Shown one piece after another: positions 52,686-58,973 of a stretch of DNA of 64,000 nt. How positions within the stretch are numbered: position 1 is the stretch's first letter; each line of letters opens with the position of its first letter. The translations under genes and the position numbers were made by a program. The stretch covers positions 490 through 64,489 of the forward strand of contig CAYXQO010000008.1 in the NCBI GenBank assembly GCA_964467475.1, given 5' to 3'. Source of the stretch: an uncultured Syntrophomonadaceae bacterium (GTDB lineage: Bacteria > Bacillota > Dethiobacteria > DTU022). The notes beneath the pieces are model-generated. The model was not told where the DNA came from. It saw only the letters and a list, made by a program, of their open reading frames with translations, and did no database searches.

Positions 52686-52714
52686 TTGACAAAAGAGTAG
52701 GAATAATTTAAAAT
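52686..52714 (+). promoter_or_regulatory. sigmaA promoter of the tandem-riboswitch leader
   Basis: TTGACA-17-TAAAAT. Confidence 0.75.
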
Positions 52715-52780
52715 ATATATAGATGTAGATGGCTGTATAATTATGGCACCCGGTTGAGTTAGCTTCCGGGGCTACCGGAA

Positions 52781-52885
52781 AAACCTGGACGATAAAGGCA
52801 AACCTGTTGAAAAACAGGGGCGCAAAGCTAAAGGGTCTACGGCTCAACTAAAGAGCTAGGACAGCCTGGCTGCCGAAGCAGGGTT
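52781..52885 (+). promoter_or_regulatory. c-di-GMP-I (GEMM) riboswitch 1
   Basis: GGCAAACC-TGTT-GAAA-AACAGG-GG-CGCAAAGC...GCTGCCGA; G20 (52797), A47 and C92 (52873) equivalents present. Confidence 0.92.
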
Positions 52886-52962
52886 TTTTTATTCAAAAGT
52901 GGAGGTTAAAAGTTGCTTTGGCCTGGAACTGGCTTATGAAAAGGCCGTTTCCGGGCAAAAAA

Positions 52963-53058
52963 ACCTGACCGACAAAGGCAAACCTGTCGAAAGGCAGGGA
53001 CGCAAAGTTCAGGGTCTAAGGCTCAGTTTATGAGCTACGATAGCCTGACTGCCGAAAC
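52963..53058 (+). promoter_or_regulatory. c-di-GMP-I (GEMM) riboswitch 2 (tandem)
   Basis: GGCAAACC-TGTC-GAAA-GGCAGGG-ACGCAAAG...ACTGCCGA; G20 (52977) and C92 (53052) equivalents present. Confidence 0.93.
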
Positions 53059-53080
53059 TGGTTTTGTTTTACCTTTGTCG

Positions 53081-53106
53081 GTCCCTCATGAAGGAGGGAC
53101 TTTTTT
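53081..53106 (+). terminator. Riboswitch expression-platform terminator that also hides the SD
   Basis: GTCCCTC-ATGAAG-GAGGGAC-TTTTTT; AAGGAGG (53091-53097) lies in the loop and 3' arm; GTG start at 53107. Confidence 0.85.
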
Positions 53107-54336
53107 GTGACAAAAAATGATTTTTTATTAAATGGTAACTTCTTTTTTCCCGCAGTGTTTTCCGGTCTAGTTTCAGCCTGGAAGAACAAAGTCTATGTTT
53201 TCTTTGCCTCGCTGATCCTGCTTTTATTTTTAAGCATACCCGCCAGGGCGGCTGTGGAAGAATTTATTGTTAAGGCTGATGATGGTGTTTACAGCAAATT
53301 TTCTTATGAAGAGCTTCTAGACTCTTACGCCCTGAAGTTGATGGGCAAAGAAGGAGCGCTCTACGAAGAGTTTGCAGCAAAAGAGGTTGTCGCCCTTAAA
53401 ATATCCGGGCACGGCTATTTTGATTACAAAGATATTCTCGATTATTATGCCGGATCTTTAAGCAACGGCGATAAGTTTGATTTGCTACAGTATGCTGGTA
53501 ACGGTAATGCCAGGCAGGCCGAATTACCGGGGAATATTGAGACGGTTTCCCCCTCCGGTGGAGAAATCCCGGCCGGTGATGCAGGTCCAGAAGGTGATAT
53601 AAAAGAGGAAAAAGATGAGGAATTGGGGTTAGATGAAAGATCTGGTAATGAAAAAGAAAAGAATGATAATGACAAAGAGGAGGAACGGGAAGAAGAAAGC
53701 AGCCGGGATGAAGAATCTGATGATGAAGGAAGTAACGAAGAGAAAGAAAATAAAGAAGAGGAAATAGAAGAGGAGGAGAAAGAAGGGGAAGATAAAGAAG
53801 AAGAAAATAAAAATGAAGATGATTCGGAACCGGGATCATCCGGTGAAGAAACTCAGATCCTGGGGCAGGCTGAAGTCAGCTTGGATGAGGCTGTAAGCTG
53901 GGCCCAATCCAACAATGCTCATCAAAGATATGTAGATGCTGCCCCTTATTACTGGGAGTTTGGTGAAAAGACCGGGATTCGCCCGGAAGTACTTTATGCT
54001 CAGGCGGCGTACGAAACCGGGTTTGGGCGTTTTGGCGGAATTGTTCCGGCGGAGTACAATAACTGGGCAGGTATCAAAAAAGGCGGGGTTAATGGTGACG
54101 AGCCCGAAGACCATGAAGAATTTGCCTCTCCTGAAGACGGGGTCAGAGCTCATTTTAACCATATGGGTGCCTATGTCGGAATTTCTCCGGTTGGTGAAAC
54201 CCACGACCGCTATGACTCTGCTACCCGGATGTCCTGGGCCGGAAAGGTGGAAACAGTTGAGGATTTAAGCGGTAAGTGGGCCCCTTCTGATTCATACCAC
54301 GAACGCATTGTGGAGATGATTGACGAAATGAAATAA
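53107..54336 (+). CDS. Secreted glucosaminidase (GH73-like) with uncharacterised N-domain and acidic linker
   Basis: Signal peptide; E/K/D-rich linker; RPEVLYAQAAYETGFG...NNWAGIK...EDGVRAH. Confidence 0.85.
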   Translation: MTKNDFLLNGNFFFPAVFSGLVSAWKNKVYVFFASLILLLFLSIPARAAVEEFIVKADDGVYSKFSYEELLDSYALKLMGKEGALYEEFAAKEVVALKISGHGYFDYKDILDYYAGSLSNGDKFDLLQYAGNGNARQAELPGNIETVSPSGGEIPAGDAGPEGDIKEEKDEELGLDERSGNEKEKNDNDKEEEREEESSRDEESDDEGSNEEKENKEEEIEEEEKEGEDKEEENKNEDDSEPGSSGEETQILGQAEVSLDEAVSWAQSNNAHQRYVDAAPYYWEFGEKTGIRPEVLYAQAAYETGFGRFGGIVPAEYNNWAGIKKGGVNGDEPEDHEEFASPEDGVRAHFNHMGAYVGISPVGETHDRYDSATRMSWAGKVETVEDLSGKWAPSDSYHERIVEMIDEMK

Positions 54337-54479: not shown

Positions 54480-55028
54480 TTACTTTTCCCTGGGCATGCA
54501 AATTATTTCCTTGATTGTAGTGTTGAAAAACTGGTTGGAGTGATCCGGTACAAGCACACAGGCAGCGTCTGCGCCACCACCTGTGCCACCGACAGCGATA
54601 ATTTCTTCGCCATGGGGGATCAGGCCGGCATCCAAAGCCATCACGCTTACCTCGACACCTACTTTAATTCCCTGTCCGAAGATGCGCAAGGATGCTGATA
54701 TAATTTCAGCCGGGTAAACCCCCTCGAACTTAAAGCGCAAGGCCCGATCGACTCCTGCAAGCAAGTGGGTTGTAGTTAGTACCTTAATCCCTTGTTCCTG
54801 CAATTTTTTACGGGTTTCCAGCTCCATTTCATCTGCCCCGGGGCCCTTGAATCCTACATGGTGGGTAACACATACCACTTCAAGCCCTTTCCCGGCGAAC
54901 AACTCTGCCGTCGCTCCACTGTTGGATGCCACGACCACGTGATTGATCCCCAGTTCTTTTGCCCGCTTACAAACTGCATCCACAGTTGCCTCAGTATTTT
55001 TAGCGCCCTTTTTCTGCCAGTAATGCAT
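54480..55028 (-). CDS. Stand-alone pyruvate kinase C-terminal (PK_C, COG1751-type) protein
   Basis: NTEATV, VVVASNSGATA, VTHHVGF, FGQGIKV, IAVGGTGGGAD. Confidence 0.85.
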   Translation of the reverse strand: MHYWQKKGAKNTEATVDAVCKRAKELGINHVVVASNSGATAELFAGKGLEVVCVTHHVGFKGPGADEMELETRKKLQEQGIKVLTTTHLLAGVDRALRFKFEGVYPAEIISASLRIFGQGIKVGVEVSVMALDAGLIPHGEEIIAVGGTGGGADAACVLVPDHSNQFFNTTIKEIICMPREK

Positions 55029-55283: not shown

Positions 55284-55312
55284 TTGACAAATGCTAAACG
55301 GGCTGATAATAT
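55284..55312 (+). promoter_or_regulatory. sigmaA promoter upstream of riboswitch 3
   Basis: TTGACA-17-TAATAT with extended -10 TG. Confidence 0.65.
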
Positions 55313-55370
55313 TATTATGAAAAATTAGAAATATTTGTTGTGTGTTAATAAATTTAAACGTGCTTTGGCG

Positions 55371-55473
55371 AACCTGACCGAGAAGGGCAAACCTGTTGAA
55401 AGGCAGAGGGCGCAAAGCTATAGGGCCTAAGGCTTTATCCAAAGCTAAGGCAGCCTGGCTGACGAAGCAGGTT
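55371..55473 (+). promoter_or_regulatory. c-di-GMP-I-class riboswitch 3 (variant: C92A and a 1-nt P2 insertion)
   Basis: GGGCAAACC-TGTT-GAAA-GGCAG-A-GGG-CGCAAAGCTATAGGGCC...GCTGACGA. Confidence 0.85.
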
Positions 55474-55523
55474 TATTCGTATCTCTTTTTTTAGGCTGAC
55501 TGTCGGGTTAGGAGGTTTCCTGG

Positions 55524-57092
55524 ATGAGCAGGGCGATGTGGCGTAAAAAAAAGCGCAGAAAAAAAATCAAACTTAATCCCACTATCTTGGTCGGCTTTGC
55601 CACCGTAGTGCTGGTTGCAACTGTACTGGCTCTGGTGTTAACGGACAGTTTTGGGGTAGCTTCTTCACTGCGCCAGGTATTTGCCACCAGCAGTGTAGAT
55701 ATGGTTGATGAAGACGGAACCGAAGTGATTGACGGGGACTATACCATAGATTCTCCCGGCGTGAGACTGGAAGATGTGCGTATTACAGGTGATTTGCATC
55801 TAGCTTCCGGTATTGGCGATGGGGAAGTGGATTTGGTCGACGTTACCGTGGAAGGAGCAGTCCTGGTCCAGGGTGGCGGGGTCAAATCTATTTTTATGCT
55901 CAACTGTGATTTTGCGGAAGTCAAGGTAAACAGGCCTGACGGGCGAGTGCGTTTGGTCGCCTCCGGTGAAACAATTATCGACCAGGTCAGCCTGGAGACA
56001 GGAACAAGAGTGGTGGAAAACCTTTCAGGTGGAACAGACGGCATCCGCTCTGTAGAGGTTAAGACCGATGAAAAAATTGAACTCGGCGGAGAATTTGAAA
56101 CGATTAAAGTAGCGGTGCAGGATGCCAAAGTAGTCATAGACAGTGAGAAAATAGAGCATTTGCGAGTAGACAGCAATGCTTCCGGATGCACTTTTGAATA
56201 TCCGGATGGTATGGTGATTGAGAATATGCGCCTTCAAGGAACTACTTATCTTTTTGGTCGCGCAGAAGTAAATCAGGCCCTTATTTCGGCTTCCGGGGTT
56301 TCGGAATTGGAAGGCAATTTCAACCAGCTCAGGGTGACCTCTGAAGCCGGTAAATTTGAATTGATCGAAGGGTCATATTTTAAAGAATTAGATGTAGCCA
56401 AGGATGCTCTGAACAATGTTTTCAGTGCAGGGGAAGATGTGATTATTGATTACCTGGTTTTAAACGAGGCTATCACCATGCAAGGTGCCGGCACGATTGA
56501 AAGTGTCCTGGTGAATGCTGCCGGTTCTACCCTGGAACAAATCCCTGAAGAAATCGAGTTTACCGGAGAAGTAAGTATAATTATTGACGGTCACGAGATA
56601 TCAAGCCCGGAAATGCTTAAAGCTTTGCTTGAACATGGTGATCCCCATTATACTACAGCGGATACCGCTGATGTGGGGATTGAAGAAAGCGAACCTGAAC
56701 CCGATCCCGAACCTGATCCGGAGCCTCCAGAAGAAGCGGAGTCGGAAGAAGAGCCTGAACCTGAAGTTGAATCAGACGATGAAGGTGTTGAAGAAGAGGA
56801 TAGCGATGTTGCTGCCGGCGGTGAAGGCGATGAAGAAAGGGAAACGATCCCAGACTTTGCATTAGACATTGTGATTCCGAGCCAGGAAGAAAGAGACCGG
56901 TTGTCGTTGCATGGTAAAAACTTGGTTTATATCTCTTTGCAAACTGACAACCCGGAAGAATATATAGTAGTGATACCGGGACTGGAAATAAGGTACTTAG
57001 AAGATGTGCAACTGTTTTACGGGGTAGTCGATGAAAGCGTGGAAGAAGCTGCTTTAAAAGAAGATCTTACTGTCCAAAGTAGGAATGAATAA
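55524..57092 (+). CDS. Membrane-anchored surface protein with S-layer-associated beta-solenoid-like domain and acidic Pro/Glu linker
   Basis: Basic N-terminus plus TM; GDYTI...GIGDGEVDL..VTVEG.V.V.GGG..SI repeats; EPEPDPEPDPEP tract. Confidence 0.72.
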   Translation: MSRAMWRKKKRRKKIKLNPTILVGFATVVLVATVLALVLTDSFGVASSLRQVFATSSVDMVDEDGTEVIDGDYTIDSPGVRLEDVRITGDLHLASGIGDGEVDLVDVTVEGAVLVQGGGVKSIFMLNCDFAEVKVNRPDGRVRLVASGETIIDQVSLETGTRVVENLSGGTDGIRSVEVKTDEKIELGGEFETIKVAVQDAKVVIDSEKIEHLRVDSNASGCTFEYPDGMVIENMRLQGTTYLFGRAEVNQALISASGVSELEGNFNQLRVTSEAGKFELIEGSYFKELDVAKDALNNVFSAGEDVIIDYLVLNEAITMQGAGTIESVLVNAAGSTLEQIPEEIEFTGEVSIIIDGHEISSPEMLKALLEHGDPHYTTADTADVGIEESEPEPDPEPDPEPPEEAESEEEPEPEVESDDEGVEEEDSDVAAGGEGDEERETIPDFALDIVIPSQEERDRLSLHGKNLVYISLQTDNPEEYIVVIPGLEIRYLEDVQLFYGVVDESVEEAALKEDLTVQSRNE

Positions 57093-57116
57093 AGCTGATT
57101 GACCGGAGGTGCGCCG

Positions 57117-58973
57117 GTGCTGGATTATTTGAAGAAAACAAGTCTGATTGTAACAGCGGTTTTAGCCCTGTTATTTTGGGTTGCCTCACCCGTGGAAGCT
57201 GCCGTGAAAGCATTTGTCGTTACAAACGACCAGGGCAGTTATTATGAATACAACTACGAAGATCTACTTGATGCCTATGCTTTGAAACTCGTAGGTGATT
57301 CAAATGGTTTTTACGAGGATTATGCTGAGAAAGAATTGTATGCCCTGGTTAATCATGACGGAGAACATATTGATTACAAGGATGTGCTTGATCGTTATGC
57401 CGAAGCGATTGCCTTAGGAGAGAGGTTTGATTTAGAAGAATATATTACCGGTGATCAAGCCAAGAAACTTGAGATTTCTAAAGAAATCAATTCTATAACC
57501 CCGGACTCCGACAAAGTGGCAACTTCCGGGGGAGCCTCTACCATCAGCAATCCCGGAATGGACTTAGGAGATTTGTTGGCGGAGTTTGATCCCCCGGGTT
57601 CGCGATCACCGATTGTCGGTGCGGCAGGTGTCATGGAAGAACAGGCGATGAAATGGGCAGAGGAAAATAATGCGGCAGAGGAATTGCTAGAGCTTGTCCC
57701 GCTTTACTGGGAGTACTCCGAAAAAACTGGGATGCGGCCGGAAGTGCTTTTTGCTCAGGCCGCCCTGGAAACTAACCTGGGCCATTACAGCGATGAAGTT
57801 CCTTCTGACCGGCATAACTATGCCGGGATTTTAAAAGGTGACGCTAAAGAAGACGATCCGGAAAACTATGAAAAATTTGAAGATCCCGAAGAAGGTGTTC
57901 GGGCCCACTATAATCATATGGCCGCTTATACGGGATTAAGCCCGATCGGCGATACCCACGACCGTTATAACGTGGCTGCTGCACAGTCCTGGTCCGGCTC
58001 TGTAATCTATGTCGAGGATTTAAGTGAAAGGTGGTCGCCTTCTGAGGACTATCACCTGTATATCCTGGCCGTTATGGAACAGATAGCAAATACCGAGGTG
58101 GAAAGCCTGAAAGAGGAAGAGCCCGAAGATCCGGAAGATCCCGAAAGAGAGATACCTGAGAAGGACCGGGAAGAAAAAATCGAAGATCTTGAAGACAGGG
58201 AACACGTTGCTGTCGATGTTGCCGATATAACCGTTCTTAATTTGAGAAGTGGGCCGAGCACCGATTACGAAGTTTTAGACCGTTTGGTTAGAGGTACTGT
58301 GCTTGAAGTTACCGCCAATGAGGGAATATGGTTAGAGGTGATTACCCCGGATGATAAAGAAGGCTGGGTCCACGGTGACTATGTCAGGCCGGTTGACTTA
58401 TCGGAAAACCCCTTTGAAGGCAACTACATCATTCTTGATCCTGGACACGGCGGGGCTGATCCAGGGGCTGTCGGGGAAAGCGGACTGATGGAAAAAGAAG
58501 TTACTCTGGCTGTGGCCACTTACCTGGAAGAAATGCTCATTGAAGCCGGGGCCAGGGTGAAAATGACCAGGAGCGGCGATCAAACTGTCAGCAACAGTAA
58601 AAGGGTTGAGCTGGCCAATGAAGAAAATGCCGATGTTTTCGTCAGTATTCATGCCAACGCTTACAGCGATCCCGAGTCAAACGGTATAGAAACCTATTAT
58701 TGCTCCAACAGCGATGAGGGTGATGCCGGTAAATTCCTGGCCCAGCAGCTGCAGCGCGAAATGATTTCCGCGCTCGGTTTAAGAGACCGCGGGGTAAAAA
58801 CTAGGAGCTTCATGGTCTTGAAGGAAACAAAAATGCCCTCGGCCTTAGTGGAAATCGGGTTTGTGTCGAACCCTGATGAAGAAGCGATGCTGGAAAAAGA
58901 AGAAACCAGGGAAAAAGCGGCAGAATCGCTCTTTTACGGGCTTGAAACTTACCTGCGTAAGTTCAGGGAGTAA
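57117..58973 (+). CDS. Bifunctional autolysin: N-domain + glucosaminidase + SH3b + N-acetylmuramoyl-L-alanine amidase (Amidase_3)
   Basis: AQAALET; LNLRSGPSTDY...GWVHGDYV (SH3b); ILDPGHGG, EKEV, SIHAN, VEIGF. Confidence 0.92.
   Translation: MLDYLKKTSLIVTAVLALLFWVASPVEAAVKAFVVTNDQGSYYEYNYEDLLDAYALKLVGDSNGFYEDYAEKELYALVNHDGEHIDYKDVLDRYAEAIALGERFDLEEYITGDQAKKLEISKEINSITPDSDKVATSGGASTISNPGMDLGDLLAEFDPPGSRSPIVGAAGVMEEQAMKWAEENNAAEELLELVPLYWEYSEKTGMRPEVLFAQAALETNLGHYSDEVPSDRHNYAGILKGDAKEDDPENYEKFEDPEEGVRAHYNHMAAYTGLSPIGDTHDRYNVAAAQSWSGSVIYVEDLSERWSPSEDYHLYILAVMEQIANTEVESLKEEEPEDPEDPEREIPEKDREEKIEDLEDREHVAVDVADITVLNLRSGPSTDYEVLDRLVRGTVLEVTANEGIWLEVITPDDKEGWVHGDYVRPVDLSENPFEGNYIILDPGHGGADPGAVGESGLMEKEVTLAVATYLEEMLIEAGARVKMTRSGDQTVSNSKRVELANEENADVFVSIHANAYSDPESNGIETYYCSNSDEGDAGKFLAQQLQREMISALGLRDRGVKTRSFMVLKETKMPSALVEIGFVSNPDEEAMLEKEETREKAAESLFYGLETYLRKFRE

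Follow-up and report, generated by a model that had tools for sequence, protein, structure and literature searches.

An unlike pair of c-di-GMP-I aptamers in the leader of a predicted peptidoglycan hydrolase gene from a Syntrophomonadaceae bacterium

Introduction

Tandem c-di-GMP-I riboswitches, with two aptamers for cyclic di-GMP (c-di-GMP) in one leader, are common and are assumed to be two like switches that sharpen the response. Whether every such pair is built in this way is the question raised by a locus in a 64-kb stretch of DNA from an uncultured Syntrophomonadaceae bacterium (GenBank assembly GCA_964467475.1, contig CAYXQO010000008.1, positions 490 to 64,489; hereafter the window, with coordinates counted from its first nucleotide). 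Here a pair of aptamers, T1 and T2, sits between a near-consensus promoter and an open reading frame (ORF) of 409 amino acids (aa) that encodes a predicted peptidoglycan hydrolase. An initial annotation had read the pair as two switches of opposite sign, T1 turning the gene on and T2 turning it off. What, then, does the first aptamer do? Its role would reveal the ways in which a leader can combine two aptamers for one ligand, with the first as a same-sign checkpoint, as a coupler to T2 or as an opposite-sign gate. Judging from the sequence, the leader is an unlike pair with a platform-poor first aptamer, and in this it differs from the like-minded tandem switches that are usually assumed.

Results

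The two aptamers lie in units (52779-52890 and 52959-53069) that a repeat finder reports as direct repeats with 80-82% identity and a period of 179-180 nucleotides (nt). A protein-based genome scan for orthologous leaders returned a single locus, L003, in a Syntrophomonadaceae metagenome-assembled genome from soda-lake sediment; the protein is 54% identical and its leader has the promoter-T1-T2 layout of the window. Searching metagenome DNA with the pattern AACCTGNNCGANAANGGCAAACC gave 74 loci, most of them in soda-lake sediments; 81 aptamer units were extracted from these loci and 59 distinct units analysed. Among them are about 20 distinct tandem leaders with a spacing of 128-184 nt, and the units form three groups: T1 (first of a tandem), T2 (second of a tandem) and S (single, with a platform like that of T2). 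T1 and T2 are distinct conserved sub-types, recognizable by their 5′ strands, ACGAUAA (in full G[GAC]ACGAUAA[AU]GG) for T1 and CCGACAAA for T2. The order of the module is promoter, T1, GC-rich hairpin, T2, hairpin sequestering the Shine-Dalgarno (SD) sequence, and a gene for a secreted cell-envelope enzyme; the genes regulated in the related loci encode glucosaminidases of the same family as in the window, transglutaminase-like proteins anchored in the membrane (PF01841) and an M10 protease that carries CWB2 wall-binding repeats. The window leader is thus, by its sequence, one copy of a conserved two-aptamer c-di-GMP leader of soda-lake Firmicutes related to Syntrophomonadaceae.

The second aptamer, T2 (52967-53056, plus strand), is a canonical c-di-GMP-I aptamer that matches RF01051 with 84.1 bits (gathering score 35), and the equivalents of the ligand-contacting G20, A47 and C92 (Vc2 numbering) are all present, as G52977, A53000 and C53052. 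Its 5′ strand GACCGACAAAGG (52967-52978) is the exact reverse complement of CCTTTGTCGGTC (53072-53083), as the initial annotation had pointed out; these are the sole two matches in the window at one mismatch or fewer (0.24 expected by chance). With the repeat finder the arms lengthen to 16 nt (94% complementarity), so that an antisequestor or antiterminator strand at 53068-53083 faces 52967-52982, including the G20 equivalent and the 5′ strand of P1a. The same annotation had described a terminator that overlaps the complement and buries the SD, and such a hairpin is indeed found by the terminator scan at 53080-53101 (GGUCCCUC/GAGGGACU), with 8 pairs (5 of them G-C), a 6-nt loop and a U6 tail at 53101-53106. 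The SD sequence GGAGG (53093-53097) lies in its 3′ strand, 9 nt upstream of the GTG start at 53107. Antisequestor helix and SD hairpin overlap by 3-4 nt (53080/81-53083). Since the G20 equivalent and the 5′ nucleotides of P1 lie within the stretch taken up by the alternative partner, this pairing excludes ligand binding. The arrangement is that of an OFF-type switch: the strand on which ligand binding depends is offered a second, conserved partner, and this partner reaches into the terminator/SD hairpin.

This layout recurs in the related loci. Pairing between the 5′ strand of T2 and S units, GACCGACAAAG(G), and (C/A)CUUUGUCGGUC fills 90% of cells in the comparison of 36 distinct sequences, against 37-55% in slid controls, and in one locus (L073) a C-G pair of the helix is replaced by U-A, a compensatory change. 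The GGUCCCUC/GAGGGACU hairpin is 97.9% paired in the family, with compensatory changes at 3 pairs, a result equalled by 2 of 500 shuffles; in every case its 3′ strand is the SD. The U tail is missing in four loci (L009, L033, L040 and L075), from which we conclude that SD masking is the universal function and termination an addition in most loci. In folding models of 15 tandem loci, enforcing P1 of T2 gave the complete hairpin in all 15, while leaving T2 unconstrained let the antisequestor form and reduced the base of the hairpin to 0.03-0.25 in 8-9 of them. Conservation and folding thus agree with the OFF logic that the initial annotation had assigned to T2.

In the window, the two ligand-free folds, at -48.7 and -47.7 kcal/mol, are about 8 kcal/mol more stable than the aptamer-plus-hairpin fold (-40.5 kcal/mol), a gap that ligand binding could plausibly pay for, given the affinities of class I aptamers. 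The complete hairpin is worth -13.3 kcal/mol, compared with -3.8 kcal/mol for the 4 base pairs (bp) that remain once the antisequestor forms. The ligand-free, minimum free energy (MFE) structure also contains a small hairpin, GAAAC-UGGUUUU-GUUUU (53054-53070), which is built from the 3′ end of the aptamer and stacked on the antisequestor helix; GAAAC/GUUUC is paired in 62% of cells in the family. Upstream, the A-rich flank and CCU of T2 (52957-52966) can pair with GGUUUU (53060-53065). The same gene families are also preceded by lone T2-type units, which makes T2 a self-sufficient switch. No T2-type unit lacks both U-runs, the one in the tail and the one behind the hairpin; a complementary use of the two in T2-type units appeared as a non-significant trend (Spearman -0.19, p = 0.29).

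We consider T2 likely to be an OFF switch on these sequence and folding grounds. Without ligand, its 5′ strand (52967-52982, with the G20 equivalent) would pair with 53068-53083 and strip the basal 3-4 bp from the hairpin at 53080-53101. With ligand bound, the strand would be kept in the aptamer, the full hairpin would form and bury the SD, and termination would become possible at the U6 tail. High c-di-GMP would in this way shut off the hydrolase.

Two variants of the module were observed among the related loci. Where translation starts with AUG-AAG (for example L027:5312-5479 and L030:3837-4002), the antisequestor strand CUUUGUC is also complementary to GAUGAAG, which holds the start codon and the first lysine codon, and one long hairpin of the ligand-bound fold could there bury both SD and start codon; the window counterpart of this pairing is UGUC/GACA only. 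At L040:3491-3886 and in L062, which is identical in sequence, the spacer hairpin is followed by U6 and resembles a true intrinsic terminator for the first aptamer, and the second unit has an SD sequestor without U tail, giving a clearer two-platform (bi-mechanism) form of the module.

The first aptamer, T1 (52788-52878, plus strand), belongs to the c-di-GMP-I clan (CL00126) and matches best to RF03167, the c-di-GMP-I-GGC variant, with 69.0 bits (gathering score 59). The contact equivalents are G52797, G52820 and C52873; G20 and C92 are unchanged, and it is the G at the A47 position (G52820) that explains the RF03167 assignment. The orthologous aptamer of L003 scores 74.3 bits on RF01051. GAAA tetraloops of the GNRA type, as expected for the two-helix aptamer fold, are present at 52809-52812 in T1 and at 52989-52992 in T2. 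P1a exists in 13 distinct versions in first aptamers (19 units, 99% paired), 10 in second and 15 in single aptamers, with 98-100% pairing throughout, and first aptamers retain all core nucleotides, with compensatory changes in their stems. All this indicates that T1 is a genuine, selected aptamer.

All three classes of aptamer, first, second and single, vary between A, G and U at position 47, and every combination (G,A; A,A; U,G; G,G) stands before the same gene families. A nucleotide other than A is found in 11/18 T1, 4/17 T2 and 10/24 S units. Even at orthologous positions the nucleotide differs, with G in T1 of the window, A in T1 (and also T2) of L003 and U in T1 of L019. Given that the position is polymorphic throughout the family, we read it as affinity tuning or drift and not as the mark of a second ligand, which suggests that, in this family at least, the GGC variant forms no functional class of its own. 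Some of the family's aptamers would, by the same token, fall under the GGC variant of Rfam and not under canonical c-di-GMP-I. A literature search for the GGC variant or for the affinity effect of A47G gave no usable result.

Around T1 the sequence offers several possible partners. The 5′ flank (AAAAACCUG, 52779-52787) could lengthen P1 by pairing with CAGG-G-UUUUU (52879-52889). Its CCUG (52784-52787) is predicted to be paired with CAGG at a probability of 0.97 in the ensemble of 52779-52883. First aptamers of tandem loci retain CCUG, although the search pattern left it unconstrained, and the extension CCUG:CNGG is conserved as well. Beyond CCUG, covariation between A-rich flanks and U-rich tails, with tails permuted among loci, was null for both T1 (p = 0.17 and 0.12) and T2 (p = 0.5). 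The same permutation gave no signal for cross-pairing of the T1 tail with the T2 flank (p = 0.11) or of the T1 flank with the T2 tail (p = 0.53).

The 3′ end of T1 can alternatively form the hairpin that the initial annotation had made the basis of an ON switch. This hairpin, CCU-G-GCU[GCCGA]AGC-AGG (52865-52882), draws on C92 and the 3′ strands of P2 and P1, has C52873 (the C92 equivalent) in its loop, and is followed by G52883 and U52884-U52890, just as described. Its energy is -6.4 kcal/mol, or -8.7 kcal/mol if pairs with the first U's are allowed, and its bulge accounts for its absence from the terminator scan. The U7 run (52884-52890) could be a terminator tail, a pause site or the 3′ strand of the P1 extension. 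The role proposed for the hairpin, a terminator that forms only without ligand, is not supported by the family or by the predicted folds. In L003 the inner GCU/AGC pairs become GCC/AAC, which leaves 4 bp and a 10-nt loop; the family mean is -2.7 kcal/mol, with 0.0 in 6/19 first aptamers, among them the ones whose U7 runs are best, and the window value is the extreme. No link between hairpin strength and U-run quality was seen among the 19 first aptamers. In the ensemble of 52779-52883, without ligand constraint, the hairpin has a probability of 0.002, its 5′ arm being taken by P2 or by an alternative 7-bp hairpin. Moreover, a U-rich run follows nearly all units, whether first, second or single, and the tail of CNGG and U-rich run has a mean U count (out of 8) of 6.4 in T1, 5.2 in T2 and 6.2 in single units. 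If this tail were a ligand-relieved terminator, many single OFF units would never be expressed.

What else the U-runs could do is suggested by other observations. The tail of L061, GGGUUUUUUU, read by eye, toggles between the 5′ flank and an AAACCC antiterminator in a classical OFF platform; a U-rich tail can therefore act as a P1 strand in this clade. Many tails resemble TTNTTT, which is a NusG-dependent pause signal in Bacillus, and pausing at the U-runs may allow the aptamers to bind in time. The family comparison revealed no conserved T1-specific platform or terminator; conservation downstream of T1 is confined to the P1 extension (CCUG:CNGG), a U-rich run and the GC-rich hairpin. What T1 has is a 4-bp P1 extension, or a weak local hairpin, and a U-run.

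Between the aptamers lies a GC-rich spacer hairpin (52921-52956; 8 + 6 bp), just 5′ of the A-run flank of T2 and followed by A's, not U's. The spacer folds with -24.4 kcal/mol (z = -3.65), and a hairpin of differing sequence occupies the same place in nearly all tandem loci. Adjoining it, UUGCUUUGGC (52913-52922) is a 10-bp complement of the T1 3′ end (52872-52881, including the C92 equivalent) (-15.5 kcal/mol, z = -2.9 versus shuffled linkers) that appears in the window only and also forms in the full-leader MFE structure. As a conserved spacer partner for the T1 3′ end we rejected it, since significance was limited to the window and the mean z over 19 loci is -0.58. In the full-leader MFE structure with both aptamers free, the T1 5′ strand CGAUAAAGG (52790-52798) captures the antisequestor at 53072-53080 (9 bp, -13 kcal/mol) and leaves the hairpin untouched. 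A general role of the T1 5′ strand as decoy was likewise discarded, as the pairing is strong only where T1 reads CGAUAAAGG, with a median of about -7 kcal/mol versus -18 to -21 kcal/mol for the strand of T2.

A GUGGAG(G) motif recurs in the spacer after first aptamers (window 52899-52940; L003, L011, L013, L019, L031, L041 and L050). The CC[A/G/U]C(C) that immediately precedes CCGAA in T1 is a possible pairing partner, and in the window the motif is followed by an 8-codon ORF starting with TTG, which has no conserved counterpart at other loci. The idea of a leader peptide behind this motif was dropped on the ground that start codons, spacing and frames are not conserved.

Within one locus, the cores of T1 and T2 are often near-identical, which suggests recurrent duplication or conversion. 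At the same time, the T1-type 5′ strand (ACGAUAA) and the spacer hairpin are kept in no fewer than 15 loci, which span three or more gene families, and this argues for selection on a function of T1.

The promoter (52686-52714, plus strand; TTGACA-17 nt-TAAAAT) is of the sigma-70/sigma-A type with 11/12 consensus matches and should start transcription near 52721; in the alignment, a TTGACA...TATAMT promoter is similarly placed in most related tandem loci. The regulated gene (53107-54336, plus strand, GTG start), identified from the ORF list and a Pfam match, encodes a predicted peptidoglycan hydrolase of 409 aa. An N-terminal membrane or signal segment and a conserved N-terminal domain are joined through an acidic linker to a mannosyl-glycoprotein endo-beta-N-acetylglucosaminidase domain at the C-terminus (PF01832, E = 1.1e-13).

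Rfam covariance models find three aptamers of the c-di-GMP-I clan on the plus strand of the window. The third belongs to a riboswitch (55284-55523; aptamer 55376-55466, RF01051, 66.1 bits) 2.4 kb downstream of the tandem, with its own TTGACA promoter and a G at the A47 position. The initial annotation had overlooked it, as it had the G at this position in T1 and the recurrence of the tandem as a conserved module. The third riboswitch has the same CCUGGCUG(A)CGAAGCAGG hairpin as T1, copies of CCUG and CAGG on either side of the start codon, and a GGUUAGG at the SD that is able to pair with its own 5′ strand CCUGACC; L014 is a near-identical relative and L054 an ortholog. It precedes a 522-aa protein without Pfam match (55524-57092), after which comes a glucosaminidase-SH3-amidase_3 autolysin (57099-58973). 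The autolysin and the hydrolase at 53107-54336 have a common N-terminal domain outside Pfam (FxVxxDDGxYxxxxYEELLDSYALKLxG...), which recurs in many riboswitch-controlled genes of the related loci; the linkers that follow it are long and acidic or made of PE/PD repeats. The minus strand between the two operons under riboswitch control (54480-55028) encodes a 182-aa protein with a PK_C (pyruvate-kinase C-terminal) domain only.

Discussion

The best explanation for the pair, in our estimate with a probability of roughly 45%, is that T1 acts in the same direction as T2 or helps it. Its ligand-locked P1, beside the U-run, would raise pausing or termination, or T1 would assist T2 in some other way. 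The outcome would be a steeper or tighter OFF response, of the pseudo-cooperative or bi-mechanism kind, and no band-pass. The polarity of T1 is the weakest step of this explanation, and a number of points speak against it. We found no cited precedent for a ligand-locked P1 that directly serves as a terminator stem. The P1 stem beside the U-run measures 4 bp, 5 first aptamers have a U-U mismatch there, and about 4/18 have poor U-runs by our reading of the tails. Single T2-type units retain an elaborate second hairpin, which suggests that a P1/U-run site alone is weak. In the Bc3-5 ON switches, the terminator is made of the same three pieces (P3 3′ strand, C92 and P1 3′ strand), and the window hairpin is the strongest of its family. 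Enforcing P1 of T1 raises the antisequestor pairing of T2 in 6/15 loci, which points to an ON-like T1. Finally, in the equilibrium model the basal pairs of the T2 hairpin of the window stay at about 0.6 in every state, and the overlap with the antisequestor is just 3-4 bp. Given this value, and given that the two ligand-free folds of the window (a 12-bp antisequestor with short hairpin and an 8-bp antisequestor with full hairpin) differ by 1 kcal/mol, the T2 switch would here be kinetic or partial; it may be leaky.

Alternatively, T1 could be an ON switch and T2 an OFF switch for the same ligand, with the hydrolase made only at intermediate c-di-GMP. This band-pass, proposed by the initial annotation, would be a natural RNA-only c-di-GMP filter in at least 17 loci, before several cell-envelope enzyme families whose genes would be on only in the middle of the range, and we know of no other natural band-pass riboswitch. 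It could work by two routes: the local hairpin at 52865-52882 and U7 would terminate only when the aptamer is empty, or the CGAUAAAGG strand of an empty T1 (52790-52798) would be a decoy for the antisequestor at 53072-53080 and leave the T2 hairpin intact. The hairpin and U7 do exist, in their strongest form in the family, and their layout is that of the validated ON switches Bc3-5 (PMC4759541); in addition, the decoy pairing dominates the full-leader structure when both aptamers are free, and the 6/15 loci named above point the same way. Incoherent control by a single c-di-GMP-I riboswitch has been proposed for Bc1 (PMC11218506), and a synthetic ON and OFF tandem yields a band-pass (as cited in PMC10265488). 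Against the first route stand the lack of conservation of the hairpin, its occupancy of 0.002 in competition with P2 or the alternative 7-bp hairpin, and the consequence that the same tail would make single T2-type units self-defeating. The second route is weakened by the poor decoy complementarity of most loci. Either route needs T1 to respond at the lower ligand concentration, while it is T1 that more often has G or U at the A47 position; if G47 weakens binding, the order needed for a band-pass would be reversed, T2 responding at lower c-di-GMP than T1. Of the proposal, the OFF half is supported and the ON half, by way of the weak hairpin, is not, so that a band-pass is not the best-supported reading, and we regard it as unlikely.

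Two further explanations deserve mention. T1 might have no output of its own, being a duplicated aptamer that acts as a folding or kinetic helper (for example through a ligand-dependent structure or pause before T2) or that slowly decays, with T2 alone regulating. The absence of a conserved T1-specific platform would fit, as would T2-type units that work alone elsewhere and the near-identical cores that suggest recurrent duplication or conversion. A T1 with all its core nucleotides, compensatory stem changes, and a 5′ strand and spacer hairpin conserved over so many loci and gene families is hard to reconcile with this, and we think it improbable. It is also conceivable that T1, as a GGC variant, senses another signal than T2 and that the pair is a two-input gate. 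The best Rfam match of T1 would favour this, and Weinberg et al. 2017, the discoverers of the GGC variant class, reportedly left its ligand open. Nonetheless, position 47 flips between A, G and U at orthologous positions and in all combinations before the same gene families, both aptamers of L003 have A, and G20 and C92 are unchanged. The family-wide polymorphism led us to rule out a two-ligand gate as the main reading drawn from the GGC assignment, and we judge it very improbable.

With T2 as predicted, the module would place peptidoglycan hydrolases, transglutaminase-like proteins and a wall-anchored protease of anaerobic, alkaliphilic Firmicutes under repression by c-di-GMP. In Clostridioides difficile, the secreted protease ZmpI (gene zmpI) is repressed by a class I c-di-GMP riboswitch. 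Tandem c-di-GMP-I riboswitches before COG1305 transglutaminase-like genes in Bacillota are already on record (PMC12452182), and these genes are one of the families regulated by the module.

How does the leader compare with other arrangements? T1 resembles the RF03167 variant in scoring best there and in its G at the A47 position, yet that position is polymorphic here among otherwise identical orthologous aptamers. In the literature searched, no example of a natural band-pass tandem riboswitch was found. The logic proposed by the initial annotation is that of a synthetic system, the band-pass engineered from tandem thiamine pyrophosphate (TPP) ON and TPP OFF riboswitches (Muranaka and Yokobayashi 2010, as cited in PMC10265488). 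For Bc1, an incoherent control of transcription and translation has been proposed, in which its terminator T1 unfolds while the ribosome-binding site and AUG are masked (Liu et al. 2024, PMC11218506). A single ligand would there act with opposite signs within one c-di-GMP-I leader, which is a possibility here; Bc1, however, is a single aptamer with two terminators and no net in vivo response, whereas the window has two aptamers. The Bc3-Bc5 triple tandem of Bacillus thuringiensis (Zhou et al. 2016, PMC4759541) shares with our leader the tandem class I aptamers and the terminator layout of the hairpin at 52865-52882. All three are ON switches whose ligand-free terminator fold was computed to be more stable, in contrast to the window, where the hairpin is weak and not conserved and the downstream unit is of the OFF type.

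Also close are the same-ligand tandems catalogued by Sherlock et al. 2022 (PMC9481103), with 347 c-di-GMP-I doublets and 12 triplets, which are described as pseudo-cooperative or bi-mechanism; that review mentions no ON/OFF mixtures. As in its pseudo-cooperative tandems, the window has two class I aptamers in one 5′ untranslated region with no ORF between them, and the second has a full platform. Those tandems consist of two complete riboswitches, each with a platform, whereas the first aptamer here has no conserved terminator; and unlike them, the window's two aptamers are distinct conserved sub-types, with a conserved hairpin between them.

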